The position numbers and the translations under genes were made by a program. From an uncultured virus (IMG/VR IMGVR_UViG_3300026196_000001) (taxonomy: Duplodnaviria > Heunggongvirae > Uroviricota > Caudoviricetes), in the IMG/VR virus record IMGVR_UViG_3300026196_000001: 64,000 bases of DNA, one strand, 5' to 3'. Shown one piece after another: positions 13,437-37,061 of this stretch (the stretch's first letter is position 1; every line of letters begins with the position of its first letter). The notes below the pieces were generated by a model, which was given only the letters and a program-made list of their open reading frames with translations, ran no database searches and was not told where the DNA came from.

Positions 13437-13888
13437 GCCACACCAACAAGGACACCAACCCGAAGGACGCTGTCGGCTCGAAGAAGGTGCCGATGTCACG
13501 CGTCCCAGTCGCCCCGCTCCTGGAGGTTGCTGCCTCCTTGCACGAAGGGCACGTCAAGGGCTACCGCGGCCACAACTGGCGCATCGCCGGAGTCCGGGCC
13601 TCGATCTACTACGACGCCGCCCACAGGCACCTGATGGCGTGGTGGGAGGGCCAGGACATCGACCCCGACAGTGGGCTCTCACACATCTCGAAGGCCATCG
13701 CTGGGCTCTTCGTCCTGCGCGACGCCATGATCCACGACAACTGGACCGACGACCGTCCGCCCAAGACTCCGGAGGAGTTCCTGGCCGAGATCCAAGCGGC
13801 CATGGACGAAGTCAATCGCCGCTACCCCAACCCCGAAGAGGGGCCATACACGGAGGTGAACGATGGTAAATCCGCTCAGGGTCGGTGA
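13433..13888 (+). CDS. dATP/dGTP diphosphohydrolase domain protein (DUF5664)
   Basis: TNPKDAVGSKK, G..KGY..HNWR, YYDAAHRHL.AWW.G.D.DPDSGLSH. Confidence 0.88.
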   Translation: MSHTNKDTNPKDAVGSKKVPMSRVPVAPLLEVAASLHEGHVKGYRGHNWRIAGVRASIYYDAAHRHLMAWWEGQDIDPDSGLSHISKAIAGLFVLRDAMIHDNWTDDRPPKTPEEFLAEIQAAMDEVNRRYPNPEEGPYTEVNDGKSAQGR

Positions 13889-14059
13889 CCGAGTCGTCAT
13901 CGCCATCCCGACCCCGCGTCCACCCGCCCGTGCCCGCGTGGGCACGGTCATCGAGCTGAGGAACTACAACGCCCTCGCTGTTGTCCGGTGGGACGATCGC
14001 GACTACCTCGGCTTCCAAGTTTCCACCAAGACCGTAGATGTTCTGCGAAAGGTAGCATC

Positions 14060-14467
14060 ATGAACGAAGACCCCTCAACCACTCCTCACACCGCCTACCT
14101 AGCTGGGCCCATGCGGGGAAAACCGCTCTACAACTTCCAGCTGTTCGCCGTCGCAGCCATGGAGATGCGCTCCCGCGGCATCTTCATCTACAGTCCGGCG
14201 GAGCGGGACTTGGCCTCGGGGTTCCAGCCGCACCTACCACTGGATCACCCTGACCAGAAGTTCGACCTGCACGAGGCGTTCGACTGGGACTTCCGTGCGA
14301 TCCAGGAGGCCGATGCAGTCATCCTCCTGCCCGGCTGGGAGGACAGCGACGGCACCAAGCGTGAGATCATCCTCGCCCAGACTCTGGGGAAGGACATCTT
14401 CCAATACTACTACAACAACAGGCTGAAGCTGGTGATCCCCAAGCTGATCGTGAGCGTGGCAACATGA
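14060..14467 (+). CDS. Nucleoside 2-deoxyribosyltransferase-like protein (DUF4406)
   Basis: YLAGPMRG...YNF, SPAE, DAVILLPGWEDS.G...E. Confidence 0.85.
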   Translation: MNEDPSTTPHTAYLAGPMRGKPLYNFQLFAVAAMEMRSRGIFIYSPAERDLASGFQPHLPLDHPDQKFDLHEAFDWDFRAIQEADAVILLPGWEDSDGTKREIILAQTLGKDIFQYYYNNRLKLVIPKLIVSVAT

Positions 14468-18767: not shown

Positions 18768-19321
18768 GCGACTTCCTCAACAACGGGATCTGCCCGAAGA
18801 CACGGCGGATCTTCCTCTATGGTGACGTCGAGGAAGAGGCCGTAGGCAAGGCCATCCGCGGCATCTACGCCATGCTCGCGACGGACAAGAACGCACCCAT
18901 CACGATCTTCGTCAGCAGCTACGGCGGGTCGCTGGACGACGCCATGGCCCTGGTCGACGTGGTGCGCTTAGCCTCCTGCCCGATCCGGACAGTCGCGCTC
19001 GGGAAGTGCATGAGCGCTGCCCCGCTGATCGTCGCCGCCGGAACCGGGGGCCGCTACGCCATGCCCAACACCATGTGGATGCTGCACGATGTGTCGCAGA
19101 ACGTGGGCGAGGGCAGCCCCGCCTTCCTGTCCAGCATGGCCAAGGCCGGGAAGAGCATCGTGGCCCGCTACGCCTCCCTGCTCGGGCAGTGGACGGATCG
19201 CGAGGAGTCATTCTGGAAGGGCATCTTCCGGTCGAAGTCCGACCGGTTCTTCACGTCCGACGACGCCCTCGACTGGGGCATCGTGGACGAGGTCTTCGAG
19301 GAAGAGGAGGAGGAGGAGTGA
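18764..19321 (+). CDS. clpP: ClpP-family serine protease
   Basis: RRIFLYG, SYGG, GKCMSAA (Ser), MLHD (His), DRFF (Asp), ALDWGIVDEV. Confidence 0.9.
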   Translation: MSDFLNNGICPKTRRIFLYGDVEEEAVGKAIRGIYAMLATDKNAPITIFVSSYGGSLDDAMALVDVVRLASCPIRTVALGKCMSAAPLIVAAGTGGRYAMPNTMWMLHDVSQNVGEGSPAFLSSMAKAGKSIVARYASLLGQWTDREESFWKGIFRSKSDRFFTSDDALDWGIVDEVFEEEEEEE

Positions 19322-19852: not shown

Positions 19853-21655
19853 ATGAAGCTGCTACTACCCATCCTGCTGTTCCTGACGTCCGTCGTCAGT
19901 GGGCAAAGCATCCTGGTCTACAACCCCACGCCATACCCGCGACAGCAGGTGGTGGTATTCGGCATCCCCAAGGGGCAGGCACCGAAGGGCTCTGAGATCC
20001 TCTACAAGCTCCCCACAGTGGACGTCTGCACGGCTAGGGTTCGAGTCCCAGCCCACCACAACGGCTATGTGAGCGTCGCACAGGGCGCTGCGGCCCCCTC
20101 TCCTGGCCTCGGCTTCGACTTCAGTGCGAATCTGCCCATGAGCATCAACGGGACCGCTCCCTTCAAGGAGCTGACCCCCATCGCTGCGAACACCCAAATG
20201 CTGGTCCGCCACCTCGTGGCCAGGACCAAGACAGGCCTCATCGGGCACCTGATCGTCTACCAGGGCTTCGGGGAGGACTGGTGCCGCTACGAGTTCGTGA
20301 TCGCCGCCGAGTTCCTGGATGCCGCCGAGAAGGTCGTCACCGCCGAGCTGGTCCTCGGCGGGCAGAACACCAAGGTAGACCGCCTGATGCCCACAGAGCA
20401 GACAGGGAAGCTGCGCGACCGGCAGGGCTTCGGGTCCTACGGCGCGATCATCGCCCCGGCACACTCCGACGAGACCCTGATGGAGATGTCCACCAAGGCC
20501 GGGCTGCGGATCTGGGAGCTGACCGTGTGCGGGAAGTTCGAGCGCTGGGGCCCGTGGGGCGTGCCCCCTGCTGGGAGACACCTCGACCGCAACATCCGCT
20601 TGGGCCTGCTGGACCACCGCGGGATCATCCTCGACAAGCACCCCGGGAAGACCGGCGAGCAGTTCGGCTTCGGCGTGACCAAGCACCTCGACTGCCAGCG
20701 GCCCGGACAGATCCACCGGCTCGCGCACGATCGCGCCGCTGTCCTCCAGGAGGCCTGCCGCCCGATCTGGCTGTTCGAGCCCGACGGGACGCTGCCGATC
20801 ATCAGCAAGCATCCGCAGTTCATCAGCTGGGATGAGACATGGCACTGGCACCCGAACATCGGGCGCGACCGCTTCGGCCGCACCTACTCGCACGGCGGCT
20901 GGTATGAGGGCTGGATCGGAATGGACCGGCAGCACTACAGCGCGGTCGCCCTGTCCGAGGACGTGCTCCTGCGCGGTGGCTTCCTGTCGCAGCTGATCCT
21001 GAAGATGAAGGTGTTCCACTTCCTGACCGAGATCGGCTACCCCACGTCAGGGCGTGCGCTCGGCCGCTATATGTTCGCGGCCAGAGACCTCTACCTCGCG
21101 ACCGGGGACGAGCGCATCATCGCCGAGATCCGGAAGCGTTGGCTCCCCGAGTTCAAGAAAAACTGGACAGCCGTGAACGGACACTGGGTGCGCCTGACCG
21201 ACCTCCTGGAGACGCGCCCGTTCGTGCTGCGCCTGATCGCCGACGATCCCCACACCAAGATCCCCGGCAACGAGTGGGTGGTCTGGGAGGACGGCATCGC
21301 CGTGCAAGGGCTCGATGTTCTCGGCCGTCTGCTCAACGATCCGGAGATCACGCTCGCTGCGTTCCTGCTCGGGCGCTCCGTCGTGCAGCACGGGTTCTCG
21401 CCCAACGGGAGGATCCTGAAGGCCATCAAGTGGACGGCACCGCTCGCGCCGCTCGGCCCGGAGCTGGCGGACAGTGCGCAGACGAACTACACTGAGTGGG
21501 CGCTGCCTGGACTGGGCGTCACGTTCCTGCACGCCGTCAATCTCCGCGACCAGGGTCTCCAAAAATCTCTGCTTCTTCTGCTGCTCCCGCTCATGCGCAG
21601 CGAGTATGGGAACCTGGACTCCTACCGCGGACTGCTGGGGACGCGTGGCAGCTGA
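19853..21655 (+). CDS. Secreted 600-aa protein, possibly carbohydrate-active (N-terminal beta domain + helical barrel)
   Basis: Signal peptide MKLLLPILLFLTSVVSG; VYNPT..PR...V.FGIP; GRALGR...LYLATGD. Function is inferred. Confidence 0.6.
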   Translation: MKLLLPILLFLTSVVSGQSILVYNPTPYPRQQVVVFGIPKGQAPKGSEILYKLPTVDVCTARVRVPAHHNGYVSVAQGAAAPSPGLGFDFSANLPMSINGTAPFKELTPIAANTQMLVRHLVARTKTGLIGHLIVYQGFGEDWCRYEFVIAAEFLDAAEKVVTAELVLGGQNTKVDRLMPTEQTGKLRDRQGFGSYGAIIAPAHSDETLMEMSTKAGLRIWELTVCGKFERWGPWGVPPAGRHLDRNIRLGLLDHRGIILDKHPGKTGEQFGFGVTKHLDCQRPGQIHRLAHDRAAVLQEACRPIWLFEPDGTLPIISKHPQFISWDETWHWHPNIGRDRFGRTYSHGGWYEGWIGMDRQHYSAVALSEDVLLRGGFLSQLILKMKVFHFLTEIGYPTSGRALGRYMFAARDLYLATGDERIIAEIRKRWLPEFKKNWTAVNGHWVRLTDLLETRPFVLRLIADDPHTKIPGNEWVVWEDGIAVQGLDVLGRLLNDPEITLAAFLLGRSVVQHGFSPNGRILKAIKWTAPLAPLGPELADSAQTNYTEWALPGLGVTFLHAVNLRDQGLQKSLLLLLLPLMRSEYGNLDSYRGLLGTRGS

Positions 21656-23621: not shown

Positions 23622-24308
23622 GTGATGAACCAGACAACCATTCTCGCGTGGCACTTCACCGCTAGGGACAGGCTCCGTGACGGAAATCCCGTCCCACCGA
23701 TCGGCGAGAAGCTCACCCACGAGGGGCCACTGACGATGTGCCGATCCGGGCTTCACGCATCTACGAGGCTCATGGACGCGCTTGGCTACGCGCCTGGTGC
23801 CATGCTCCATCGCGTGGAGTGCGCCGGGGAGACGATCACCGAGGAGGACAAGCTCGTGTGTCGCGAGCGCACGATCATATGGAGCCTCGACGCTGAGCCG
23901 ATCCTGCGTGAGTTCGCCCGATGGTGCGCCTTGGAGGTGATCGACCTATGGGATGCTCCTGACGTAGTGCGGGAGTTCCTGGAGACCGGCGACGCGACAT
24001 TGCGGGCTGCTGCTCGGGCTGCTGTTCGGGCTGCTCGGGCTGCTCGGGCTACTCGGGCTACTCGGGCTGCTTGGGATGCTGCTTGGGCTGCTCAGGATGC
24101 TGCTGCTTGGGATGCTGCTCGGGCTGCTCGGGCTGCTGTTCGGGCTGCTCGGGCTGCTGCTGCTTGGGATGCTGCTTGGGCTGCTCAGGATGCTGCTGCT
24201 GGGGCTGCTGCTGGGGCTGCTGCTCGGGCTGCTCAAGAAGCCAAGCTAATCGAGATGGTCGAGACCAAGCGCGCAGCCGCGAAGGAGGAGACCACCGATG
24301 GACAATGA
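23622..24308 (+). CDS. Phage protein with Ala-Arg/Ala-Trp low-complexity tract
   Basis: CRSGLHAS...DAL.YAPG, EDKLVC.ER; AARAA/AAWDAA repeats. Confidence 0.8.
   Translation: MMNQTTILAWHFTARDRLRDGNPVPPIGEKLTHEGPLTMCRSGLHASTRLMDALGYAPGAMLHRVECAGETITEEDKLVCRERTIIWSLDAEPILREFARWCALEVIDLWDAPDVVREFLETGDATLRAAARAAVRAARAARATRATRAAWDAAWAAQDAAAWDAARAARAAVRAARAAAAWDAAWAAQDAAAGAAAGAAARAAQEAKLIEMVETKRAAAKEETTDGQ
24003..24234 (+). repeat. Tandem GCTGCTCGG/GCTGCTTGG codon repeats
   Basis: Directly visible low-complexity tract. Confidence 0.9.
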
Positions 24309-25303
24309 ACTACTGCTACAGAAGCTGAACGCCCTGACGGAGCGCGTCGAGGCGCTGGAGGGGAAGAAGCGAGAACCGCGCATCTGCGCATCTTGCGGAA
24401 AGCCAGAGGACAATCACCCGTATCGGCATATGTTCGAGCCGCAAGAGTTTGCCAAGCAGCCCGAGCCCGAGATCGACATGGGAGAGATCCCTCATGCAGA
24501 TGACATCGTGAACCAGATCAACCTGCGTGTCGCTCCGCCCGAGCCCGAGATCCCCGACGAGGACCGGGCCGAGTGCGCCGAGAAGGACAAGCGCATCGCG
24601 GAACTCAAGGCGCTGCTGCGGGAGGCAAAGCGTCGCCACTACTACTGCGCGGACCCTTGGTATTCGTGCCCGAAGGCGGACGGAGGATGCGCTAATGAAG
24701 CCCTCGACGATGAGTGCGACTGCGGGGCGGACGAGTGGAATGCACGCATCGACGCCAAGCTCGGGGAGCAGGAGTGATGAGTGGCAAGCTCTATGACAGC
24801 ACGGGCAGGGAGATCCGCGAAGGTGACCTGCTCCGCAGTCCGCACTTCAAGGCCCGTGGTCGGTGGAACTACCTCTACCACATCGCCTTCGTCCACACAG
24901 GCACAGGCAAGATGCGCGCAGCGTATGCGGCCTCGGTCTACGAGAAGGGCTTCACGCTGCACAACAGCTGCGGGCTGTCGCAGAAGCTGACCGACGACAT
25001 GACCATCATCTGTGGCCACAAGGGAGATCCCTGGGGCGAGGACTTCTACAACCGCCCGCGCAGGGGGAGGGCGTGATGGCCAGCTGCGAACGATGCTGGG
25101 CAGCGGCGCGACGGAGAGCCGAGCTTTCGATGTCGGACAACGTGTCGGAGATCTACGAGAAGCTGATCAAAGACAGCGACTGCACGCCGGAAGAGCAGGC
25201 TGGGCCTTCCGCAACCGGCTGCCCGAAATGCGGTCGCAAGACCGTCCACCAGTGGGCCAAGCTGTGCATGTCGTGCGGGTGGGACCCGCTGAAGAGGGCC
25301 TAG
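24298..25303 (+). other. Three coupled hypothetical genes (24298-24777, 24777-25076 YopX-like start, 25076-25303 Zn ribbon)
   Basis: Overlapping start/stops; D..GREIREGD; CxxC pairs. Confidence 0.6.
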
Positions 25304-25926
25304 TCCCGCAGCATGTCGCGGAGCACGGCCTTCGTGACCGGGGTCATCCAGCCCATCCACCCGACCGAGACCTGGACGAAGCCCTGATTCTGGACGGACA
25401 CCGCGCGCACTACGCCGATCAAGTGTCCATCTTCACTGAACACCGGACCTCCGGACGAACCGCCGATGATCTGCGCGCTCATTGTGTCCGGTCCGCAGAT
25501 CCGCCCCTCTGTGATCCTTCGGATTCCTGGGCCAGGGTAGGCGATGATGATGCACTTGTCCCCGAGCTTGGGCAGTGGTCCAGCGATGACGGAGCGGATG
25601 CGCCTGTCGACGACCGGCACGAACACGGTCGCGAGGTCGAGCGTCGGGTGCTCCTTGATGACCTTGATCCCGGTGCGGATGATCCCATACTCGGGGTGGC
25701 TGGCCATCATCTGCGAGCCGATGCCGCGCGTCACGTGCTTCGCCGTCATGAAGATGGTGCCGTTCCGGAGCTTCAGGATCGGGAACATGGTCCCGTGCCC
25801 CCTCGGGGAGGAGAGCTTCCAGCTCTGCTGGTAGTGGAAGGGTCCGACCTGGGGCTCGACAGTGGTTGCGAGCGCGATCGAGACGGCGAGAAGGGGAGCG
25901 GCGGCGAGGACCAGGAATGACTTCAT
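25300..25926 (-). CDS. Secreted trypsin-like serine protease
   Basis: Signal peptide; TAKHV (His), DLA (Asp), GGSSGGP (Ser); GGAG RBS. Confidence 0.88.
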   Translation of the reverse strand: MKSFLVLAAAPLLAVSIALATTVEPQVGPFHYQQSWKLSSPRGHGTMFPILKLRNGTIFMTAKHVTRGIGSQMMASHPEYGIIRTGIKVIKEHPTLDLATVFVPVVDRRIRSVIAGPLPKLGDKCIIIAYPGPGIRRITEGRICGPDTMSAQIIGGSSGGPVFSEDGHLIGVVRAVSVQNQGFVQVSVGWMGWMTPVTKAVLRDMLRD

Positions 25927-26010
25927 GAAAATCTCCGTTGTTTTTGCGAGTGCCACCCCACCCTGCGCGGAGCAGCGGTCCCTCAAGTATACCATGGCAT
26001 CGGCATCTTG

Positions 26011-26108
26011 GGGACAGGAAAAAAGAATGATCGGCACCCCCAATAGGAGGGCCAGGGTGGCCTACCTACTGCGAACCGGTCGCAAGACCTGAAGTGCCCA
26101 TGCCATGG
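26011..26108 (+). repeat. Imperfect ~95-bp direct repeat, copy 1
   Basis: GGGACA..AAAAAGAATGAT..CCAATAGGAGG..CTGCGAA..TCGCAAGA..CCCATGCCATGG shared with 29301-29393. Confidence 0.8.
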
Positions 26109-26318
26109 ACAGGACACAGCGGTCCCATGCCATCGGGCCTTCAGCGGCAGCGTGCGGAATCGCACACCCCGGGCCCGGTCGGGTGGAACCGTGCGAAAGG
26201 CTACCCCGCCGCGGTGCAGCCTGAAGGGGGAATCTTTTTTCTTTTTCCGCCGCACGCGGCCCGCTCGGTGTGTAGTCTTCCTCGGTTCAACCACACACGC
26301 ACACAAGGAGACACGAAC

Positions 26319-26870
26319 ATGACCGACACCAAGCCAACCCGGAAGATCCGCCAGCTCAACAACTACGGCGACGCCCAGTTCCCGCTCTACCTCGTCGACG
26401 TGCCCGAGGTGGGCACCGAGATGGAGGTGAGGCCGCTCGGCAATCGCCGCTTCCACGTCGTCGGTGCGCACAAGGAGAGGGGCCCGGACGGGCTCCCCGT
26501 CGCGAATCCGGTCCTCGTGAATGGCAAGGCCTACCGCGGATCGGCCATCGTAGAGGCCTTCCTGGGCGGCGGGTATGCGTCCTCGATCCCCGGCACGTCG
26601 ATCACCTTCGTCAGCGGTGTGGGGCAGCAGATCATCGGCCAGGACCGGGTCAAGTTGGTCGGGGCCATCTACGACGCCCTCGACGACCTGCGCACGACCT
26701 ACCCCGAGTGCGACGCGCTGGCCACGATTGCGCAGTCCCAAATCGACGAGCGCAAGGCCATCAGTGAGCTGATGGACGCCACCGACGCGCTGATCGGGGC
26801 CCGTAGTCGGTTGACCACCGCCACTCGGCGCAGGGATGAGGCCCGTGAGTTTCTGCGGAGACTTTCGTAG
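26319..26870 (+). CDS. Putative early protein (leader type A)
   Basis: Leader CACGCACACAAGGAGACACGAACATG. Confidence 0.8.
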   Translation: MTDTKPTRKIRQLNNYGDAQFPLYLVDVPEVGTEMEVRPLGNRRFHVVGAHKERGPDGLPVANPVLVNGKAYRGSAIVEAFLGGGYASSIPGTSITFVSGVGQQIIGQDRVKLVGAIYDALDDLRTTYPECDALATIAQSQIDERKAISELMDATDALIGARSRLTTATRRRDEAREFLRRLS

Positions 26871-26933
26871 AATCTTCCGCACGCGGCAGGACAAGGCTGT
26901 ATAGTTCAGCAGTTCAAACAAGGAGCACACACC

Positions 26934-27197
26934 ATGAGCAAGCAAGAAGAGATCCTCAAGCTGCTGGCCGACATCGCCAAGGGCTACGGCCGCAAGGGCG
27001 AGAAGACCAGCGATCCCATCCTCAACGCCACCCGCAAGGCACTGCGGTCCCTCTCCGACAGCATCTACGATGCCCTCTCCCACAGAAAGGGCAGCACTCG
27101 CCACAAGCTGGCGCTGCACGACCTGCGACAGCGTGCGACCGTCGCGAACGACGCTCGTCGGGTGCAGGAGATCAGGGACGAGAGGGGGGAAGTCTGA
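26934..27197 (+). CDS. Putative early protein (leader type B)
   Basis: TATAGT -10, AAGGAG RBS. Confidence 0.8.
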   Translation: MSKQEEILKLLADIAKGYGRKGEKTSDPILNATRKALRSLSDSIYDALSHRKGSTRHKLALHDLRQRATVANDARRVQEIRDERGEV

Positions 27198-27286
27198 CCG
27201 TGATTTTCCCCAGAAGATCCGGCACGCACCCGCGCAAGCGGGTAGTATTCAGCGGTTCAAAGACACGCACACAAGGAGACACGAAC

Positions 27287-27775
27287 ATGGGACGCAACGA
27301 AGACTTCCGGCGCAAGGCCGAGCACATCAGCAACATCTTCGGCGGCACGCTCGTCGAGAACGAGAAGGTCGTCGCACTGGCCGACTACCTGGGCCTGTGT
27401 CCCGAGGAGGACGTCGCCGGTCCGGAGGGGCTCGGTGGGGACGAATACCGCACCCCCAGCGGGAACACCTACAGGGTCCTCACCGATGAGGAGGCCAACA
27501 ATGCCGTGGCCGACTACATCCGGGAGAGCCTGTGGGGTTTCCTGCCCGGATTCCTGGAGGACTACACCCCCGACGGTGTGGACGCCGACATCCTCAGCGC
27601 ACTCCAGCAGTCCAGGTGCGAAGATGCGAACCCCGCATTCCTCGCCCTGGTCGGGGACAAGCTGGACCAGCTAATCTCCGATGTCATCGAGGCCGACGGC
27701 CGCGGGCACTACCTCTCCGACTGGGACAGCGAAGAGGACGACCTGGGCCACGGGTATTTCGCCTACCGAATCTGA
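27287..27775 (+). CDS. Acidic putative early protein (leader type A)
   Basis: 26-nt leader identical to that of 26319; YRVLTDEEA, DGRGHYLS.WD. Confidence 0.8.
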   Translation: MGRNEDFRRKAEHISNIFGGTLVENEKVVALADYLGLCPEEDVAGPEGLGGDEYRTPSGNTYRVLTDEEANNAVADYIRESLWGFLPGFLEDYTPDGVDADILSALQQSRCEDANPAFLALVGDKLDQLISDVIEADGRGHYLSDWDSEEDDLGHGYFAYRI

Positions 27776-27839
27776 AAAATCTCCGCTTCTTTCGGGAGGC
27801 GGGGGTATAGTTCAACAGTTCAGACAAGGAGCACACACC

Positions 27840-28460
27840 ATGAGCAAGACCATCGACATCGTTTTCAGCCGCGGCGAGGATCGCGGCCCGCACGGCTACC
27901 CCGTGTTCTACGCCGACGTCAGCGGCGACCGCATCGAAGGCAGGCTGGAAGTCCTGCCCGGCGGCGACGGCCGGGTCGACATCATCACCGGATACGACGA
28001 CAGCACGCCCGAGCGCAAGGCCCGCACGATCCTCATCAACGGCGTCGAGCACGAGGGCCGGGCCACGCTGAGCGACGGCACCAGCCCGACCGAGAACGAC
28101 CGCCGAACCGGCGAACCGCCTCGGGATCGCGGCCGGTGGCGCTACCGCTACCCCCACGGCTATTTCCGCTTCGGCGGCGGCGGATCCTTCGAGGACCTCA
28201 CCGACTCGGCGCGGGGCAAGCTGCACCGACTCTGCGAGCTGCTCGCGACCCAGCTCCCCGACTTCCACCCCTGGGCCTACGAACTGGGCGACCTCGCCAG
28301 AGCCAAGGCCGACGCGGACGACAAGGCCAGAGCCGTCTTCGAGGCCCAGCAGCACCTCTCCACCCTGGAGGACGAATACGTGGACAAGGTCAACGCCGAG
28401 ATGGACGCCCAGGCCATCGTCAACCGCTTCGAGCGTGCGGCCGAGGAGGGGCGGGTATGA
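27840..28460 (+). CDS. Putative early protein (leader type B)
   Basis: Leader nearly identical to that of 26934. Confidence 0.8.
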   Translation: MSKTIDIVFSRGEDRGPHGYPVFYADVSGDRIEGRLEVLPGGDGRVDIITGYDDSTPERKARTILINGVEHEGRATLSDGTSPTENDRRTGEPPRDRGRWRYRYPHGYFRFGGGGSFEDLTDSARGKLHRLCELLATQLPDFHPWAYELGDLARAKADADDKARAVFEAQQHLSTLEDEYVDKVNAEMDAQAIVNRFERAAEEGRV

Positions 28461-29215
28461 CCCACTACCACCACCTCAACAGCACCGACAAGATCGGGGA
28501 CAGCATCATCCGCGCGTGGGGCCTCACCCCACTCAGCTACCGCTTTCTCTACACCTTCGAGCGTGGGGAGCGCTTCCCGCTGATCCTGCCCGATGCGACC
28601 GCCTACGGCGACTACTTCGGCTACGCCTCCGACCGGGCGAACCAGGAGGAGCTGACCGAGGCCCTCGACGAGATCGAGGAGGCCCGTGGGATTGACCTCT
28701 ACCGCATCGTCCACGAGCGCGGCGGATCCCACACGCTGGTCCTCTACCCGCGGGCGCTGGCCTTCCCGGAGATCCGGGAGCTGCTGGAGGCCCTCGAATC
28801 TCACCCAGTTCTCGACGATGACCGGACGCAACGCATCGAGGAGGAGCTGCGCGCCGAACAGTGGGACCAGATCATCCGCGAGGACTTCCGGGCCGAGCTG
28901 GCCGGGCTGATGCCCGAGACGTGGGGCACTGAGACGTCGCAGGAGACGCCCCAGGACCTCCCAAGCCTCAACCCCTTGGACTACCCAGGGTCCGGCTGGA
29001 ACGGCTCCAGCGGGCTCCCATGGGTCGAGGACGACGCCCCCGACGCGGACGAGGTCCTGGAGGCCTTGACCGACGACGACCTCGACGAGCTGTTTCACGA
29101 GGGCTGCGAGCTGGCAGGCGAATACGTGGAGGAGGAGCGATACGGGGAATACCGCTGGCCGCTGGTCGACGCGGCCAAGGCCCTGGGATGGGACGCCGTC
29201 GCAAAGCGTCTCTGA
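28457..29215 (+). CDS. Very acidic putative early protein
   Basis: ATGA overlap, GGAGG; D/E-rich. Confidence 0.78.
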   Translation: MTHYHHLNSTDKIGDSIIRAWGLTPLSYRFLYTFERGERFPLILPDATAYGDYFGYASDRANQEELTEALDEIEEARGIDLYRIVHERGGSHTLVLYPRALAFPEIRELLEALESHPVLDDDRTQRIEEELRAEQWDQIIREDFRAELAGLMPETWGTETSQETPQDLPSLNPLDYPGSGWNGSSGLPWVEDDAPDADEVLEALTDDDLDELFHEGCELAGEYVEEERYGEYRWPLVDAAKALGWDAVAKRL

Positions 29216-29300
29216 AAATCTCCGCTTCTTTTGCGGACCGAATACCGTGTGTGCTGGAGGGCGTGGCTCGTTTCGATGAGTCGCGCCTTCCTCTTTTCCT

Positions 29301-29393
29301 GGGACAAAAAAGAATGATTTGGGGGTCCAATAGGAGGACCTCGGCCCCCGCACCTGCGAATCATTCGCAAGAGTGGAAAGTCCCATGCCATGG
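29301..29393 (+). repeat. Imperfect ~95-bp direct repeat, copy 2
   Basis: Matches 26011-26108. Confidence 0.8.
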
Positions 29394-30187
29394 GCGGTTC
29401 CGGAAAGCCCCTTGGCATGGGGGCTTCCCTTCTTGCGACCCGTTCGCAGGTAGCGGTATCGCTCGGGTGCGCGGTATCGCCCATCGGAGAGCGAAAACGC
29501 TCAGTTCGGGATCGCACATACCTTGAGCGGATCCGCTCGGGTGTGCGGATTCGATCTATCGCGAACGGTTCGCACGATGTGCGGAATCGCTCGGCTCATG
29601 TGCGGCCCCGCGCGCGTTGCGCTTTCGCCTCACGTTGCGGAATCTCACCCTAGCGGGGTTTTTTCCGCACAGAAGCATACCACATGATGTCAGGTGGCGG
29701 GAAAGTCCCATGGCATGGGGGTTTCCAGCCGGGGTGCACCGAATCGTCGATGGCATGGGCGTTTCGCGGTTGGCATAGCGCTTGCATGGGATTTTCCGTT
29801 CGGCCTTTGTTAGTGTGGCACGGGGAGGCCCATGGCATGGGGACTTCTCACCGGGTATGCTGGAATCGTCGATGCCGTGGGGACGCTGGAAACGCCCATG
29901 GCATGGGGGAAGTAGGTCGGGGTCCAGGAGGCCCCAGGATCGCCTGTGCGGGACTTTGGGCCTAACGGGTGTCCTAGGTCCCGGAAGTCCTCAAGTCGAT
30001 TTTGCGGCAGAAGTCCCGATGGCATGGGAGCGCTGGAATCGTCGATGGCATGGGAGCTTGCGATCGGCCCATGCTATGGGCCTTTCCAGCCGTAGGCCCG
30101 ATGGCATGGGGGTTTCCCAGCACTAGCAATCCACGTGCCAAGATCCGGAAGTCCCGATGGCATGGGGGTTTCACGGTTTGGCATGGG
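29382..30187. repeat. Non-coding array of CCCATG-S-CATGGG palindromes, block 1
   Basis: Perfect at 29382, 29707, 29829, 29895; variants near 29409, 29747, 30016, 30042, 30068, 30098, 30154, 30175. Confidence 0.9.
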
Positions 30188-30335
30188 ATTTGCTCACGCG
30201 TGCGCGCGCGGAACAGAGACGTCTCGGATTCTCCGGACGATTCTCGGTTTCTTTCTCAAGTCCTCCCGACCTCCTGCCGATAAGGGGGGTAGACTTCACC
30301 AAAGCAACCGCCCAACGGGGCAAAGGAAACAGACG

Positions 30336-30743
30336 ATGGAAACCAACGCACAAGAGACCGAGACGATGGCCACCTGGACTGCCGCCCATACCCTCACCGG
30401 ACAGACCTTCCAGCGGGGCAGCTTTGTCGAGAACCACCGGGCAGGAAACGTCATGATAGAGGACTGTTCGCAACGTCCGACCCTCACGTCTCGGATCCTG
30501 GAAAAGCGATTCGAGGACCTCCTGTTTTCGTCCTCCAGGCTGGCGAAAGCAAAGGGCCCGGACTACTTCGCTCGGATTTTCGTCTACTCCAACGGCCGCG
30601 TCTCGGTTTACGTGGAACGGTTCGATATCGCCGATGATGGCCGATTGGAGCCCGGAAGGCCCCACGCTCTCATCTTGTCCAAGGCCTCGATTTCGGCCGC
30701 ATTGAATGCGACCCGCGGGGCCGCTCGGCTTCTGGAAATCTAG
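30336..30743 (+). CDS. Putative early protein (leader type C)
   Basis: AGGAAACAGACGATGGAA leader. Confidence 0.75.
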   Translation: METNAQETETMATWTAAHTLTGQTFQRGSFVENHRAGNVMIEDCSQRPTLTSRILEKRFEDLLFSSSRLAKAKGPDYFARIFVYSNGRVSVYVERFDIADDGRLEPGRPHALILSKASISAALNATRGAARLLEI

Positions 30744-30798
30744 GCTCAAGTCCGGGGCCGATCCTGCCGAAAGGTAGGGTAGGCCCAACCGGGGCCGC
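30741..30798 (+). repeat. 58-bp intergenic hairpin repeat, copy 1
   Basis: 56/58 identical to 31156-31213; differences only in the terminal loop. Confidence 0.9.
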
Positions 30799-30822
30799 AC
30801 CACCACCACAGGAGAACAGACG

Positions 30823-31158
30823 ATGGAACATATCCGCATCTACTTTGGGGCCGACATTCAAGGCCGCGACACCGTCCGACCGGAAGATTTCGAGGCCTTC
30901 CTGTCCGACCACGTCACGCCCTACTGGCCCGGGTTCACCCTCACCGAGGGGACCGGATACTGGCAGGGGAACCCCGAGACCGTCCGGATTCTCTCGGCCT
31001 TGGTCGACGATTGGCAGGGACACGCAAACCGGATCGCAAGGGCCTACGCTCGGGAGTTTTCCCAGGATGCCGTCCTAGTGGAACGATCGGCCGTGTCGGC
31101 GGTTGATTTCGTCTCTGCCGACTCGAAAATCGGCGCTAACGGGAAAATCCACGATTAG
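30823..31158 (+). CDS. SAM lyase-like / DUF3574-like protein
   Basis: YFG...FL...VTP..PGFT....G.W.G..E.V.I...IA..Y...F.QDAVL pattern. Confidence 0.72.
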   Translation: MEHIRIYFGADIQGRDTVRPEDFEAFLSDHVTPYWPGFTLTEGTGYWQGNPETVRILSALVDDWQGHANRIARAYAREFSQDAVLVERSAVSAVDFVSADSKIGANGKIHD

Positions 31159-31213
31159 GCTCAAGTCCGGGGCCGATCCTGCCGATGGGTAGGGTAGGCC
31201 CAACCGGGGCCGC
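31156..31213 (+). repeat. 58-bp intergenic hairpin repeat, copy 2
   Basis: See copy 1. Confidence 0.9.
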
Positions 31214-31239
31214 CTTCACAATCCACAGGAGAACAGACA

Positions 31240-31347
31240 ATGGAAACCGCCAAGCTATACCGACTCACGAAAATCGCCGCCTCAACCGCTATCCTGTGCG
31301 GCCTCCTCTACGTCGTTCTCGGTCTCGCCGTCAACGTCGCCAGCTAG
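31240..31347 (+). CDS. 35-aa single-TM peptide (not in ORF track)
   Basis: CACAGGAGAACAGACAATG leader; METAKLYRLTKIAASTAILCGLLYVVLGLAVNVAS. Confidence 0.75.
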   Translation: METAKLYRLTKIAASTAILCGLLYVVLGLAVNVAS

Positions 31348-31355
31348 GGGGAAGC

Positions 31356-31532
31356 ATGGATCGCAACGCACAAGATGCAATGGTAGCGGCCCAAAAGCGC
31401 CTACTCCGAGCCCGTCTCGGATTCGAGGACTACCGAGCAGCCCAACGCGCTTGGGCCCGGGCCCGGAAGGCCCAACGCAAGGCTTGGGACCGGAAGGCCC
31501 GGAAGGCCCAACGGGATTTCGACGCGGCCTAG
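31356..31532 (+). CDS. Small basic helical protein
   Basis: MDRNAQDAM...RKAQR repeats. Confidence 0.65.
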   Translation: MDRNAQDAMVAAQKRLLRARLGFEDYRAAQRAWARARKAQRKAWDRKARKAQRDFDAA

Positions 31533-31584
31533 GGGCCGCACCAGCACCAGCACCACCACCACCACCACCACAGGAGAACAGACG

Positions 31585-31953
31585 ATGGAACAGAACAGCA
31601 CCACGCCACAGGCCGAGACCGATTCGCGGCCATTGTCCGAGCGAGACATCCCCGAGATTCTGGCAGACTTCCGAGACGGGGCACAGCTCCGGGCCCGAGA
31701 CCGAATCCGGTTGGGGGATCGCCACAGCATCCCCGCATCCCCGGACGGGCTGGCCGCGTATCGCAAGGTCCGGACGGCCGCACAGGAGGTCTCCAACCGG
31801 AATCTCGGGGATCTCGGGGAGACCGAACCGGTGCGGCAAGCGCTGGGGGCCGCCGAGGGGGTTGGATTCGGGTTCCTCTACCCGCTGACCGAGCTGTCCG
31901 AGACGGACGGGGAGCTGGCCAGACTGTCCATCTGTGAGGTCAGCATCATCTGA
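31585..31953 (+). CDS. Putative early protein (leader type C)
   Basis: (CAC)n then CAGGAGAACAGACGATGGAACA leader. Confidence 0.75.
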   Translation: MEQNSTTPQAETDSRPLSERDIPEILADFRDGAQLRARDRIRLGDRHSIPASPDGLAAYRKVRTAAQEVSNRNLGDLGETEPVRQALGAAEGVGFGFLYPLTELSETDGELARLSICEVSII

Positions 31954-31993
31954 GATTCCATCGACTGCCCCGGGTGCGTTGCTCGGGGTCCAG

Positions 31994-32029
31994 GGTCCTA
32001 GGTCGAAAGGCCTAGGGCCTTTTTTTTTT
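31994..32029 (+). terminator. Rho-independent terminator
   Basis: GGTCCTAGGTC-GAAA-GGCCTAGGGCC followed by 10 T. Confidence 0.92.
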
Positions 32030-32042
32030 GGTCTGCCGCATC

Positions 32043-32657
32043 GGTTGGCATGGGGCTTGCTTGTCCGCGCGTAATACGCGGGGCCTGTTATACGATCGTA
32101 TCGGCCTGTGATACGATCGTATGCGGATGCGGACGAAAGGGCGATGGCATGGGACGTTGGGCCAAGCGCGGACGCGTGGGAGCCCCAGTGCCGGACCCCG
32201 AACCATGGGCCGCGGACCACGTTTCCCGGGCCTTGTGCCGTCCCTCCCGCCCCGTTCTCCCCGAACCTTGACCCAAGGGTCGACCCCACCGGATGGCCTT
32301 CTAGGGCCCTTCCTGCCCCTCTCAGGCTATGCTGATGATGCCCATGGCATGGGGCCTTCCACGACACCGGACCCCGGGCCTCGGGCATAGGGCCGATTCC
32401 CTAGGGCCCCGAACCTAGGGCCTTGGTCCTCGGGTCGATCCCCTAGGGTATGTGCCCCATGGGGAGGATACCCTATGGCATGGGTGCCATAGCAGGCCTG
32501 CCATGGTGGGTGTGCCATAGGTAGGATGCCCTATGCTCGAATCGCCCATGGCATGGGGATCTTGGACCGTTGACCAAGGGCCCATGGCATGGGAGGTTGG
32601 GGGCGTGAGGTGGAAGTGCCCATGGCATGGGGCGTTCGGAAAAGCCCATGGCATGGG
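32043..32657. repeat. Non-coding array of CCCATG-G-CATGGG palindromes, block 2
   Basis: Perfect at 32341, 32545, 32581, 32619, 32645; variants near 32043, 32141, 32472. Confidence 0.9.
32082..32122. promoter_or_regulatory. Tandem operator-like palindromes ATACGATCGTAT
   Basis: 32090-32101 and 32111-32122 within a 20-bp direct repeat, 21-bp period. Confidence 0.6.
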
Positions 32658-33197
32658 GGCCTCGGGGTCACCTCTGAGCGCCTGCGCAACCCCCACCAAA
32701 AATGGCCCAGAAAAAAAAATCCCCCACAAAAATCGACCACTCAGTGTCCGCGGAAATGCGTATTACGCTCATCGACGTAAGTCCTTATTTTGCAACAAGC
32801 CGCTCTTGGTCCCTTATACGTAAGCACTACCGCTCACCCTGTTTTCGGTGACCCGAAGCGCGCATAAGCCCAGACAGGGGCGCACTCTATGGCAATCATA
32901 CTCTATCCCCCCCTATATATTAGGGGGTATTGTAGAGGAAAAACCTCGCCGCCCCTGGTGACCCCTCCTGGGCCCGTTCCCTGGGGCCTGGGGATTTTGC
33001 AACTGTCTACTCCACAGACCCTATCCTCGGTCCTCGGAACTCGGTCCACGAACAGAGGTTACGCGCACTTAGGTGTTGCGAAATCCAGGGAGGAGGCCAC
33101 TGTATACCTAAGAGGGCCTAAGTGGCCGATTGTCCCGATCATGTAACAGCGAAAAAACCGCCCGCACGGCGCGCGCCGCCGTCGTATACTTGAACGT

Positions 33198-33686
33198 ATG
33201 GGATCCCGCCGCTTCGATCAAGCCGCCAAAGACATCTACGTGGAGACACTCCGCGAGACCGGCGAACCTGCCGCCGCCGCCGAGGCCTGCGGCTTCACCC
33301 TGGCCACCGTCCGCAAGCACGGGGTCAAGGACCTGGAGTTCGCGGAGGCCGCGCTCGAAGCCCTGCAATCCTACCGCGCGACCATTGCCGCCGAGATCCA
33401 CCGCCGAGCGATCGAGGGGGTCGACGAGCCCGTCTTCCAGGGCGGGGTGTGCGTCGGCTACAAGAGGAAATACAGCGATGCGCTGCTGCTGGCGCACGCA
33501 AAGCGGCACATGCCCGAAGAGTATGGAGACAAGCGCGTGGTCACTCATGAGCATGCGCAGAAGCTGGACGTGGCCAACATGACCCCCGAGAGTAGGGTTC
33601 TTCTGAGGAAGATCCTGGAGCTGGAGAGCAAAGCGAATGAGATGTCCGGAGTGCGGAGCGAAGATCAACCCGAAGAAAGCCCTTGA
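33198..33686 (+). CDS. terS: Terminase small subunit
   Basis: N-terminal HTH, E.HRRAIEGV.EPVF.GG..VG..RKYSD.LL; upstream of terL. Confidence 0.82.
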   Translation: MGSRRFDQAAKDIYVETLRETGEPAAAAEACGFTLATVRKHGVKDLEFAEAALEALQSYRATIAAEIHRRAIEGVDEPVFQGGVCVGYKRKYSDALLLAHAKRHMPEEYGDKRVVTHEHAQKLDVANMTPESRVLLRKILELESKANEMSGVRSEDQPEESP

Positions 33687-33784
33687 GATCTTCCACCACC
33701 CCACGAACCCCAACCTCGTGCAGGTCTACTGCCGAGCCGACTGCGTCCTCGATGCCCTGGCCCGAGGCTATCCCCTCAAGCTCC

Positions 33785-34393
33785 TCACTCTGCGGCCGGA
33801 GCGGCGCGATCGTGGACAATGAGGCACTTCTCCCGCCAGCTGGCCTCCTTGTCGTAGCGCCCCTCCCGGATCCGCCGGACCTGGGCAAGGGTGATCCTGA
33901 ACCTGCGGGCCATGATCTCGTCGCTGACGGCCGTGTTCCGCTGGATGTAGCCGACGTAGGAGAGGCGCAGCTTCCCGTCCTTGAACACGAGGTCCTGCCA
34001 CTCTGGGCGGTAGAACCAGTCCAGGACGGTCCCCGGAGCCTTGCGCGTGGTCCAGAAGAGATTCTCCGCGCGGCAGTCCCCCCGGTTCCCGTTCCGCCAT
34101 CCGGGCACATGCCCCTCGGGCCGTGGTCCGACAAACGTCTCCAGGACCAGCTCGGCGACGCTCCACATCCTCATCTCGTTCCGCATGAGGTTCATGGGGT
34201 TGAGATTGATGGTCACGACCGGGTGTCCGTTGTTGAAGGCCCAGCGCAGCCGCTTCCCCACGCCCAAGGACCCTTTGATCATGGTCCGCTGGTCGTAGGG
34301 GTTGATGTGGCCGATGCCTTTGCCGATGCGGCGGACGTAGCCCCGGTCGGAGATGCAGTATCGGCTCTGCCTGATCTGTCGGTGTTGTTCCAT
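33785..34393 (-). CDS. NUMOD4/HNH homing-endonuclease-derived protein, nuclease motif degenerate
   Basis: Y.ISD.G.VR; LVLETFVGPRPEG...WRNGNRGDCRAENL.W; C-terminal HTH-like segment. Confidence 0.75.
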   Translation of the reverse strand: MEQHRQIRQSRYCISDRGYVRRIGKGIGHINPYDQRTMIKGSLGVGKRLRWAFNNGHPVVTINLNPMNLMRNEMRMWSVAELVLETFVGPRPEGHVPGWRNGNRGDCRAENLFWTTRKAPGTVLDWFYRPEWQDLVFKDGKLRLSYVGYIQRNTAVSDEIMARRFRITLAQVRRIREGRYDKEASWREKCLIVHDRAAPAAE

Positions 34394-34421
34394 GCCCTAT
34401 CATACCACAGCGGAGGGGCTG

Positions 34422-37061
34422 GTGTCTGAGAATCTTTCCCAGGAGGAGCTGATCAAGCGCGCCCTGGCCAACCCGGCCGAGGCCCGGAAGGCCCTGGACA
34501 TGGTCGACTGCGCGGACAGCCTGATCACGTTCATCAAGCAGGCGTGGCACACGATCGAGCCCGGGACCCCGTTCACGTCGGGGTGGGCCGTGGACTGCAT
34601 GGCCCGGCACCTGGAGGCGGTGACCGACGGGCAGATCAAGCGCCTGCTGATCAACGTCCCGCCGGGTCCCATCCCGGCCGGTCAACTGGTCATGACTGCC
34701 GCTGGACGTAAACCCATCGAAGACCTGACGACAGAGGACAGGGTCCTGACGCACAAGGGTAGATACCGCAGGGTCACTGAGCTGCACGACCAAGGTGTTC
34801 TGCCAACACTGGAGATCAGCACCTTCTCGGGACGAACGATCAGGTGTGCGCCGTCGCACCCGCTTCTGACACCAAGGGGATGGGTCAAGGCCCAGGATAT
34901 TCGGGAGGGGGATTTTCTGGCTATAGTGTCCCCAACCGAGGACCACGGTTCTCGGGACAAGGTCACGGCTGAGGAGGCTAGATTCTTCGGCTACCTAGTC
35001 GGAGATGGGTCGGTGACTCAGGCGATGCCCACTCTGACGAACCAGGACTGGGACACTATCGAAGACTTCAGACACTGCGCAAAATCCATAGGGTTCGAGA
35101 CATCCATCTCGAAATACGAAGGCAGGACAGCCTGGACTGTCAGGGTGAAAGGCGGAAAGAGGGTCAGGGACTATCTGAGTAAACACGAGCTACAAGGCAA
35201 GAGTAGCTACACCAAGCGCATCCCACCAGCAGTCCTTGAATCATCGCGCGAGATCATCCGGAACTTCATCGGTGCCTACTGGTCGTGCGATGGTCAAATC
35301 ACTGTCCGTGATAGCCGAAAACGCGGGTCCATCTACAGGGCCAACTGCTCAACTGTGTCAAGAGGTCTGGCTGAGGACTTGCTTCATGCAGTGTCCTTGA
35401 TTGGTATCCGTGGGCGTCTACGCCTAAGGTCAAATAAGCGTGCAACCAAAGCTCAGCCATCTGGTGACTACAAGTATTTCATGATCGAGGTGCAGAACGA
35501 GGTTGACACAGCCAGGTTCGCAACCCTCCCTCGGCTCACAGAACGCAAGAGAGTGCTTGCAGAGAAGTGCCGCCAGCGGTTCGATCAGACCCTCTGGGAG
35601 GATGAGGTGTCTAGAATCACTAAACACGAGTTGGCCAGCTGCTACTGTATCACAGTGGATGAGGACCATTCGTTCACTGTTTCTGATCTAGCAGTGAAAA
35701 ACTGCACGAAGAGTGTTTTGGTGAACACCTTCTGGCCAGCTTGGGAGTGGGGTCCCAAGGGACTCCCACATCACCGGTTCATATCCGCGAGCTATGAACG
35801 AGGGCTGGCGACCCGCGACATGATCCGCTGCCGTGACATCATCCAGGACAACTGGTTCCAGGACCGATGGCCGCTGGCCTTCAAGGACGACCAGTCGGAG
35901 AAGACGTTCTACGCCAACACGTCGACGGGGTGGCGCTTCGCATCGTCGGTCGGCGGACGGCTGACCGGCTACCGCGGTGACAGGATCATCATCGACGACC
36001 CGCACGACACGAAGGGCGCGGAATCGGACCTCGTGCGCGCGACCGCGACCAGGTGGTTCACGGAGACCCTGCCCACGCGCCTGAACAAGGCGTCGGAGTC
36101 GGCCATGGTCATGATCATGCAGCGGCTGCACGTGCATGACCTGAGCGGTATCATCCTGGACAAGCTCGGCGACGAGTGGACGCACCTCGTGCTGCCCATG
36201 GAGTTCGAGAAGAAGAACCGCAGCTTCACGACGGTGCCAGGGAAGTTCCCGGCGCAGCGCATGCGGCGCATCAAGGAGGACGCCGACCCGGTGCCCTACT
36301 TCGAGCCGGACCCGGAGAACGGTGAGCTGCTCTACCTCCAGGACGAGCGGACCGAGGAGGGGGAGCTTTTGTGGGAGGAGCGCTTCAACCGCGAGGCGGT
36401 CGAGAGCCTGAAGAGGGCGTTCCGATCGGGAGAGGGGGGATCCTACGCGGAGAGCGGCCAGCTCCAGCAGAGGCCAGTGCACCGCGAGGGTGGGATGTTC
36501 AAGCGCAGCGACTTCCACCTGACCACGGAGATCCCGCCCGGCTGCCGCTGGGTGCGCAGCTGGGACCTCGCGGGTTCGACCAAGAAGCGGTCCGACTGGA
36601 CCGTGGGGCTGAAGCTCGGCATGAAGGGAGGCGTGCTCTACATCTGGGACGTGGTTCGGTTCAAGGGGGAATCCCATGAGGTGGAGCAACGGATCCTGGA
36701 GACGGCCCAGCTGGACGGCCTCGGAGTCGCGATCTCCATCCCGCAGGACCCCGGTCAGGCAGGCAAGGACCAGAAGCGACACTACGCTTCCCTGCTCGGC
36801 GGGTTTGACCTCCACTTCTCACCGGAGAGCGGCGACAAGCTCGTGCGCGCGAAGCCCGTCGCTGGGCAGGTCGGGGGCGGGAACGTCTTCGTGCGGGAGG
36901 ATGCGCCGTGGCTGATGGCCTTCCTCGCCGAGATCGGGCTGTTCCCGGCCGCCGTCTGGGACGATCAGGTCGACGCCCTCTCCCGGGCCTACGCCTACTT
37001 CCTAGCCAACGAGGGCGATCCGGAGGGGGATGCCATTGGCGCACCGTCGATCTGCTACTAG
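34422..37061 (+). CDS. terL: Terminase large subunit (intein-containing)
   Basis: INVPPG|CTKS Walker A after splicing; IIIDDP; MQRLH; SWDLA, DPGQAG, DDQVDA; GTG start with GGAGG (alternative ATG 34392). Confidence 0.95.
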   Translation: MSENLSQEELIKRALANPAEARKALDMVDCADSLITFIKQAWHTIEPGTPFTSGWAVDCMARHLEAVTDGQIKRLLINVPPGPIPAGQLVMTAAGRKPIEDLTTEDRVLTHKGRYRRVTELHDQGVLPTLEISTFSGRTIRCAPSHPLLTPRGWVKAQDIREGDFLAIVSPTEDHGSRDKVTAEEARFFGYLVGDGSVTQAMPTLTNQDWDTIEDFRHCAKSIGFETSISKYEGRTAWTVRVKGGKRVRDYLSKHELQGKSSYTKRIPPAVLESSREIIRNFIGAYWSCDGQITVRDSRKRGSIYRANCSTVSRGLAEDLLHAVSLIGIRGRLRLRSNKRATKAQPSGDYKYFMIEVQNEVDTARFATLPRLTERKRVLAEKCRQRFDQTLWEDEVSRITKHELASCYCITVDEDHSFTVSDLAVKNCTKSVLVNTFWPAWEWGPKGLPHHRFISASYERGLATRDMIRCRDIIQDNWFQDRWPLAFKDDQSEKTFYANTSTGWRFASSVGGRLTGYRGDRIIIDDPHDTKGAESDLVRATATRWFTETLPTRLNKASESAMVMIMQRLHVHDLSGIILDKLGDEWTHLVLPMEFEKKNRSFTTVPGKFPAQRMRRIKEDADPVPYFEPDPENGELLYLQDERTEEGELLWEERFNREAVESLKRAFRSGEGGSYAESGQLQQRPVHREGGMFKRSDFHLTTEIPPGCRWVRSWDLAGSTKKRSDWTVGLKLGMKGGVLYIWDVVRFKGESHEVEQRILETAQLDGLGVAISIPQDPGQAGKDQKRHYASLLGGFDLHFSPESGDKLVRAKPVAGQVGGGNVFVREDAPWLMAFLAEIGLFPAAVWDDQVDALSRAYAYFLANEGDPEGDAIGAPSICY
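34668..35702 (+). mobile_element. 345-aa intein with LAGLIDADG endonuclease, Pro1
   Basis: PIPAGQLVMT...CAPSHP...GYLVGDG...GAYWSCDG...CYCITV..DHSF...VKN/C; lower GC. Confidence 0.93.

Follow-up and report, generated by a model that had tools for sequence, protein, structure and literature searches.

What reads a dense set of short palindromes upstream of a phage terminase gene, and to what end? The question is raised by a 64,000-nt stretch (64 kb; hereafter the window) of the uncultured virus IMG/VR IMGVR_UViG_3300026196_000001, in which copies of the 13-bp motif CCCATG-S-CATGGG are clustered in front of the small terminase gene (terS). An earlier note, made from the sequence alone, took these copies for sites of a dimeric protein and offered several candidate roles. 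The symmetry, tiling and conservation described below lead us to conclude with high confidence that the array is genuine and under selection, and that it consists of tiled, dyad-symmetric predicted protein-binding sites. It acts neither as a hairpin nor as a canonical promoter. As for its reader, we tentatively propose the terS product (TerS), which would recognise the array as part of a packaging-initiation and late-control region; we regard this as possible, though short of probable. The gene order of the window is that of Pseudomonas phage YuA. The packaging signals, the origins and the switches of late genes have yet to be mapped in YuA-like phages, and the array is a sharply defined cis element selected in three uncultured phages.

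Three clusters of palindromes in non-coding DNA

The window derives from a siphovirus-type phage of 64% GC with nearly every gene on the plus strand. Contigs from a soil run close its map to a circle of 70,041 bp, which leaves about 6 kb outside the window, and a second soil study contains the arrays with zero differences. Exact copies of the motif number nine, against 0.00 expected from 100 shuffles of the window, and they are the same nine that the earlier note had listed. Allowing up to two mismatches raises the number to 25 (2.42 +/- 1.68 expected; highest shuffle, 8), of which 21 lie within 25991-26136, 29382-30166 and 32141-32657, while the other four (730, 44445, 44558 and 51456) correspond to chance level. 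Of 29 occurrences of the right half GCATGGG (12.6 expected), 23 are within the same three blocks. The blocks are non-coding by third-codon-position GC, amount to 2,756 bp (4.3% of the window) and bracket two cassettes of small genes. The window-wide count thus bears out the clustering in non-coding DNA claimed earlier. The placement of the last cluster just upstream of terS was also right, since it ends 541 bp before the start of that gene at 33198. The layout is as follows.

25927-26318: non-coding block 1 (NC1), flanked by the gene of the secreted protease on the minus strand and by cassette 1
25991-26003 (plus strand, two mismatches), 26097-26109 (minus strand, one mismatch) and 26124-26136 (minus strand, one mismatch): copies in NC1
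26319-29215: cassette 1, small genes, closed by a terminator-like hairpin at 29256-29291
29216-30335: non-coding block 2 (NC2), taking in the hairpin at 29256-29291
29409, 29707, 29747, 29829, 29895, 30016, 30042, 30098 and 30154: plus-strand copies in NC2
29382 and 30068: minus-strand copies in NC2
29784 and 29869: weaker copies in NC2
30336-31953: cassette 2, small genes, closed by a terminator-like hairpin at 31992-32021
31954-33197: non-coding block 3 (NC3), taking in the hairpin at 31992-32021
32141, 32341, 32472, 32545, 32581, 32619 and 32645: copies in NC3, all on the plus strand
33198-33686, plus strand: terS, 162 amino acids (aa), modelled with an N-terminal helix-turn-helix (HTH) whose recognition helix spans residues 35-44 (LATVRKHGVK)

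The repeat unit is a tiled 25-bp dyad

Alignment of the copies on their centres placed the 13-mer at the core of a 25-bp dyad, GAA-N3-CCCATG-G-CATGGG-N3-TTC. GAA is exact at positions -12 to -10 in 14 of the 21 copies and TTC at +10 to +12 in 10 (background per position, about 1.5-1.8%), so that the dyad does extend into the flanks, as had been noted for some copies. The innermost ATG-G-CAT is almost invariant. When neighbour distances were pooled over the three phages that carry the motif, 17 of 36 fell between 25 and 27 bp. Dense copies abut, with 1-2 bp between dyads, and the irregular spacing claimed earlier holds only outside these dense runs.

Variants of the unit alter one half only (e.g., CCGATGG or TCGATGG in seven copies), and none of 29 variant pairs is compensated. 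Folding energies of single units range from -13.6 kcal/mol in the best unit to -1.6 kcal/mol, with the TCGATGG variants hardly folding. Because no pair is compensated and the variants lose the hairpin, selection acts on double-stranded sites for a two-fold symmetric reader. These observations, together with the tiling and with the persistence of the motif in two relatives whose flanks have changed, uphold the proposal of sites for a dimeric protein. The variants also ruled out a hairpin or RNA element; the predicted fold of 32062-32700 also fails to yield one hairpin per copy, and Rfam returned no family at threshold, only a sub-threshold BjrC68 match on a terminator. The arrangement was likewise rejected as an array of clustered regularly interspaced short palindromic repeats (CRISPR), in which repeats of 28-37 bp alternate with unique spacers of constant length, since the units here abut at 25-27 bp.

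The copies share one orientation, with the centre G on the plus strand in 17 of 21 (p = 0.007). To the left of three of the four oppositely oriented copies lies a second palindrome, TGCGA-N5-TCGCA, and two of those three, in NC1, face the minus-strand protease gene. The composite of motif and second palindrome occurs three times in all.

26070-26084, minus strand: TGCGA-N5-TCGCA, 9-10 nt downstream of the minus-strand copy at 26097
29355-29369, minus strand: TGCGA-N5-TCGCA in a further composite
29434-29448, plus strand: TGCGA-N5-TCGCA in a further composite

The motif persists in two distant phages

The same tiled motif was found in two distant uncultured sequences. One of them, L152, is a viral contig of 4.4 kb and 55% GC that bears 11 copies, mostly 27 bp apart, at 924-1270 bp upstream of its own terS. 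Its order is array, A/T-rich tract, AAGTAGA(C) iterons, small gene, terS, large terminase gene (terL) and portal gene, and its proteins are 30% (TerS), 39% (TerL) and 51% (portal) identical to those of the window. The other, L305, represented by 636 bp of a 1.8-kb metagenome contig, has seven copies 25-29 bp apart followed by an A/T-rich tract and CTAGGGG repeats. In a blastn comparison of both with NC2 and NC3, similarity was confined to the arrays, in any register, and to one 19-mer. As the flanks are unalignable and everything around the motif has diverged, it is selection that keeps the motif itself. What the window and L152 have in common is the succession of array, A/T-rich tract, short iterons and terS, of which array, tract and iterons are also found in L305. 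The elements of the window that enter into this comparison are the following.

32695-32798: A-tract and A/T-rich segment, directly 3' of the third array; no other 100 bp of the window are as rich in A/T as 32699-32798 (57% A+T)
32778-32796, plus strand: 19-mer TAAGTCCTTATTTTGCAAC, with 18 of 19 positions in common with L152
32919-32930, plus strand: ATTAGGGGGTAT, within the palindrome CCCCCTATATATTAGGGGG; the 12-mer is identical in L152
32399-32450: CTAGGGG repeats related to ATTAGGGGGTAT, as in L305

Conservation, which the earlier note had expected of relatives, therefore extends to these two distant phages and fails in about 55 other relatives and in GenBank phages. The motif is absent from 36 relatives identified through TerS and 19 identified through the portal, as well as from Shewanella phage S0112, RDJL Phi 2 and YuA; blastn with 29370-30200 revealed no array among GenBank phages. 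S0112 (20330-21470) has arrays of a different word, in which two clusters with at least nine copies of the oriented repeat GGCAGCGATG(N)TTTT occupy stretches without annotated genes and flank a small gene. Three pattern scans of IMG/VR recovered the array only in L155, which is the same contig as L152. A full-text search found no published description of the motif.

A search of host genomes, also suggested by the earlier note, produced 66 loci in a two-copy scan of 185,579 species genomes, and a scan of JGI metagenomes gave at least 109 loci. Among the matches listed, nearly all were coding HGMG-type repeats, microsatellites or satellites, and we rejected a host array of the repetitive extragenic palindromic (REP) kind or one widespread in bacteria. 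None of the listed bacterial or metagenome loci was matched by any of 63 window proteins in tblastn. Two loci (L229 and L248) hold the identical palindrome in 46-50-bp tandem satellites of low-GC DNA without long open reading frames (ORFs); this DNA looks eukaryotic and was judged unrelated. A 14-mer in an unrelated low-GC viral record (G003; L153 and L154) falls within a stretch of about 80 bp that is repeated near both record ends. One copy of that stretch lies inside a sigma-factor-like gene, as though a prophage had inserted there.

TerS as a possible reader

Among the products of the window, TerS is the candidate reader of the array. Its model (mean predicted local distance difference test score, 84.6) places R39-K40-H41 in the third helix of the HTH. 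By fold the model comes closest to the Sf6 small terminase, though the match is weak (probability 0.95, E 0.2, template modelling score 0.37/0.45), and no sequence match was found in the PDB. The recognition helix reads TLATVRKH in the window and HYLTFRKH in L152. In pairwise and multiple alignments the pattern GF...T(V/F)RKH is common to the window and L152. Among 27 TerS relatives with a match across the HTH region it was seen in 2, and among 17 aligned with MAFFT likewise in 2; other relatives, including some closer overall, have S-R-x-T-V-Y-x-W-R or similar. A scan of IMG/VR with two HTH peptide patterns gave 164 matches, of which one was confirmed as a relative, namely L155 on the L152 contig, so that the RKH variant of the helix and the array co-occur in the two array-bearing phages with a known terS (n = 2). 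Searches with Pfam (73 ORFs), PHROGs and NCBIfam (20 ORFs) placed DNA-binding domains only in TerS and in homing endonucleases; Pfam and NCBIfam found no HTH, ribbon-helix-helix, Mor/C, ParB or sigma54-activator domain outside TerS. A basic 87-aa protein (26934-27197) was modelled as a helical bundle and has no named match.

We propose that pairs of TerS HTHs would occupy the two half-sites of a unit and that adjacent units would be filled cooperatively. Beside the bendable A/T-rich DNA upstream of terS, the occupied units may fold up into one large assembly of protein and DNA. This assembly would tag the concatemer for the start of packaging and bring in TerL. The arrays at 26.0-26.1 and 29.4-30.2 kb could be parts of one ancestral array, split by two inserted promoter-to-terminator cassettes. 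The bound protein would also lie on or beside three sigma54-type promoters, described in the next section, and its occupancy could couple late transcription to packaging.

Several observations are in keeping with this scheme. Like known pac and cos sites, the third array (541 bp away) and that of L152 adjoin terS, which arrays 1 and 2 do not. The circular assembly fits headful packaging, which needs a pac site. A repeat-rich position upstream of terS is general in this TerS family, many members of which bear repeats of their own, 8-10 bp long, at 330-810 bp before the gene. The cosB R sites of lambda, the pac hexamers of P1 and the pacL and pacR boxes of SPP1 resemble the array in being short repeats by bent or A/T-rich DNA, upstream of or in terS, with an N-terminal HTH reader. 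They differ from it in numbering 3-7 rather than 21; the array also consists of perfect dyads tiled at 26 bp and has two more clusters 3 and 6.5 kb off. On balance, the shared TerS helix and the synteny with terS appear to lend some support to the packaging or terminus role put forward in the earlier note. The staged-injection stops that it also named found no support.

Against a packaging array read by TerS stand several points. The block that adjoins terS contains just 7 of the 21 copies, and the largest array, in NC2, is 3 kb off. In L152 the copies are oriented the opposite way with respect to terS, which also disfavours a role as a terS promoter. It is the 8-bp AAGTAGA(C) iterons of L152, lying between its array and terS, that look more like the upstream repeats of the rest of the family. 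The TerS tree puts the window, L152 and two further sequences (L116 and L338) in one weakly supported group (87/94) whose branching is unresolved, so the shared helix may have been inherited. Small terminases of the Sf6 type form rings, in which rotation-related HTHs suit direct repeats better than inverted ones. Finally, a transcription regulator would account no less well for the three sigma54 sites and for the copy midway between two of them. If TerS does read the array, it would provide a defined pac signal for the group and an instance of a small terminase reading tiled dyads; if another protein does, that protein would be an unrecognised regulator acting at sigma54 promoters.

Sigma54-type promoters and rival readings

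Perfect matches to the sigma54 consensus TGGCAYG-N4-TTGCW occur only three times in the 64 kb, all in NC2 and NC3; with at most one mismatch, 0.78 matches are expected. The array adjoins the best sigma54 consensus sites seen in the phage DNA examined.

30125-30140, minus strand: sigma54 consensus TGGCACGTGGATTGCT, perfect, facing left
30179-30194, plus strand: sigma54 consensus TGGCATGGGATTTGCT, perfect, 140 bp upstream of the start of cassette 2 (30336)
32046-32061, plus strand: sigma54 consensus TGGCATGGGGCTTGCT, perfect, right after the terminator of cassette 2 and directed towards array 3 and terS
29771-29786, plus strand: sigma54-like site with one mismatch

A short palindrome lies near the predicted start after each perfect plus-strand site (CACGCGTG and CGCGTAATACGCG). 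Two of the three sites read TTGGCATGGG where the motif has ATGGCATGGG, and hence each holds its right half-site. The copy at 30154-30166 (plus strand; centre 30160) sits at the symmetry centre of the divergent pair, about -45/-46 from both predicted starts, which favours a regulatory link. No sigma70 consensus match was found in 25500-33400.

The palindrome copies themselves resemble this consensus, TGGCAYG-N4-TTGC, in that they read TGGCATG, four bases and TTC. Each position of TGGCA, which contains the GG of -25/-24, is kept in 20-21 of 21 copies in the window, 10-11 of 11 in L152 and 7 of 7 in L305. The GC of -13/-12 is lacking: at position +11 of the unit (corresponding to -13), 17 of the 21 copies have T and a single one has G. 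Immediately before TGGCA, 20 of the 21 have A, against Y in the consensus. The A and the T rule out the copies as canonical sigma54 promoters; conversely, the three perfect sites have GC at -13/-12 and are not palindrome copies. The conserved left half of the motif has no counterpart in sigma54 promoters.

A dimeric phage regulator of the sigma54-type promoters and the two cassettes makes a rather doubtful alternative to TerS. The copies would be its operator or architectural sites, and tiled dimers would occlude or bend the DNA, switching between cassette and late transcription. The confinement of the three perfect sites to NC2 and NC3, the right half-sites within two of them, the exact centring of one copy in the divergent pair, the common orientation and the three composites with TGCGA-N5-TCGCA, which in NC1 face the protease gene, all argue for such a protein. 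YuA, which has the same gene order, is also reported in PMC10914365 to have promoters that depend on host sigma54, and its record is annotated with -24/-12 promoters. Gene order, the TGGCATG core and perfect sites in the array blocks are thus points of likeness to YuA-like promoters; the copies differ in having TC rather than GC at -13/-12 and A rather than Y before TGGCA, and YuA has no such array.

Other considerations argue against this regulator. No matching domain appeared in the domain scans of the window, although about 6 kb of the genome is outside it. Ten or more tiled sites are rare for regulators, and in the DNA examined no sigma54 consensus accompanies the arrays of L152 and L305 (L305 by eye). 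The stoperators of cluster A mycobacteriophages are comparable in being 13-bp sites, about 24-30 in number, non-coding and oriented with transcription. They are asymmetric, single and scattered between genes, whereas the array is palindromic and tiled, and no repressor was found in the window.

A replication origin is an unlikely reading. The palindromes would be initiator iterons by a DNA-unwinding element, with the upstream clusters as auxiliary sites, as in the ori and crr of P4. The array does abut an A/T-rich tract in all three phages, and in the window this is the most A/T-rich 100 bp. Side-by-side dyads recall the four O-protein iterons of ori-lambda, P4 likewise has several clusters and a primase-helicase as its initiator, and the window encodes a 798-aa primase/superfamily 3 (SF3) helicase. 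However, that gene is 20 kb from the array, which is away from the replication genes altogether, and no initiator gene lies beside the arrays. The synteny is with terS, the sequences of L152 and L305 contain no replication genes, and the cumulative GC skew has no turning point at the arrays.

The likeness of the copies to the consensus could also mean that the array is a sigma54 look-alike, an operator for a phage protein in which the host -24 element is embedded. At the three true promoters, tiled dimers would then compete with the holoenzyme, pass it on or titrate it. We consider this quite unlikely; if true, it would be a phage-built switch for an alternative sigma factor, in which two substitutions, of T for the A before TGGCA and of G for the T at -13, could turn an array unit into a promoter.

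Very unlikely, in our estimate, is a centromere-like or DNA-condensing array whose ParB-type reader would be encoded in the 6 kb outside the window. The tandem, G/C-centred palindromes in three clusters match the format of F sopC and of the RK2 KorB operators, where 13-bp palindromes (TTTAGC-S-GCTAAA for KorB) occur a dozen or more times in tandem or clusters. Pfam and PHROGs, however, found no ParA, ParB, integrase or repressor in the 64 kb, which also lacks a KorB or SopB gene, and the array sits at the packaging module of a phage with the gene order of the virulent-type YuA-like phages.

We hold it decidedly improbable that the copies are decoys or weak sites for the host sigma54 holoenzyme, whose closed complexes would be titrated there or fed to the nearby true promoters. 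Every copy has TGGCATG and, at +10 to +12, the bases TTC, and so misses TGGCAYG-N4-TTGC by one base. The sigma54 consensus, being universal, could account for the same motif in phages whose GC content spans 55-64%. The A before TGGCA (20/21) and the T at -13 (17/21) are two systematic departures, the conserved left half (CCC and GAA) has no role for sigma54, and a spacing of 26 bp is below the footprint of the holoenzyme. The sponge for a host regulator suggested in the earlier note is weakly conceivable, and for sigma54 only.

Least of all do we expect conserved recombination linkers for cassette exchange, with the repeats mattering as homology, for although a block of about 180 bp is common to NC1 and the left end of NC2, a promoter-like element stands on both sides of cassette 2 and run X3 (depth about 2) contains three pieces at 99% identity or more, all from non-coding blocks, this leaves the two-fold symmetry, the tiling and the conservation of the motif among unalignable flanks in L152 and L305 unexplained.

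Duplications around the cassettes and other features of the genome

The block that NC1 and NC2 have in common comprises 25926-26110, duplicated at 29213-29395. It is the upstream region of the protease gene with its ribosome-binding site, which at the left end of NC2 stands without start codon or gene. Leader blocks are also repeated before cassette genes (26899-26917 and 27805-27823; 26295-26321 and 27263-27289; 30741-30838, 31156-31245 and 31560-31600). The leader GTATAGTTCAGCAGTTCAA resembles the -10/+1 part of the 28-bp phage-specific promoters of YuA (CACTATACTTCTTTCAAC), and the opposite strand has another copy some 0.9 kb past the right end of the window, in the record G001. This record is the same phage and spans 33735-64000 plus 1,078 nt past the window. 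In the wetland run X3, the only pieces of 24000-35000 present at 99% identity or more were 26032-26212, 32165-32415 and 32502-32752. The non-coding blocks may be shared with a phage of different cassettes, or this may be chance.

No close phage was found in GenBank at the DNA level, megablast of 29200-33000 gave no match, and the best match of the portal is 52% identical. Downstream of terL follow a Mu-type portal gene and then tail genes. Further genes of the window are listed below.

0-14 kb: replication and nucleotide genes (Dda-like helicase, ribonucleotide reductase, family-A DNA polymerase, primase/SF3 helicase)
9247-11643: primase/SF3 helicase, 798 aa, with RepB_primase and DUF5906 domains and a C-terminal part without assignment
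18764-19321: ClpP-family protease gene, upstream of the trypsin-like protease gene
25300-25926, minus strand: trypsin-like protease with a signal-peptide-like N-terminus, the sole minus-strand gene of its region
33785-34393, minus strand: HNH_3 endonuclease gene, on the opposite strand between terS and terL
34353-37061: terL, 902 aa, with an intein bearing a LAGLIDADG domain at about residues 108-450

A gene set of the thymidine hypermodification type occupies 2829-3845, 6607-7584, 12779-13888 and 13988-14467. Its members include a 5-hmdU DNA kinase helical domain, a thymidylate-synthase-like gene (annotated in YuA as dUMP hydroxymethyltransferase), a dATP/dGTP diphosphohydrolase domain and a nucleoside 2-deoxyribosyltransferase-like gene. 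Over the whole window, CATG is not avoided (304 against 312 expected). Other short words are scarce, with GTAC found once against 113 expected, AATT 0 against 12, TTAA 0 against 2.5 and GCATGC 2 against 15. The near-absence of GTAC suggests restriction pressure of the GTAC type in the host.

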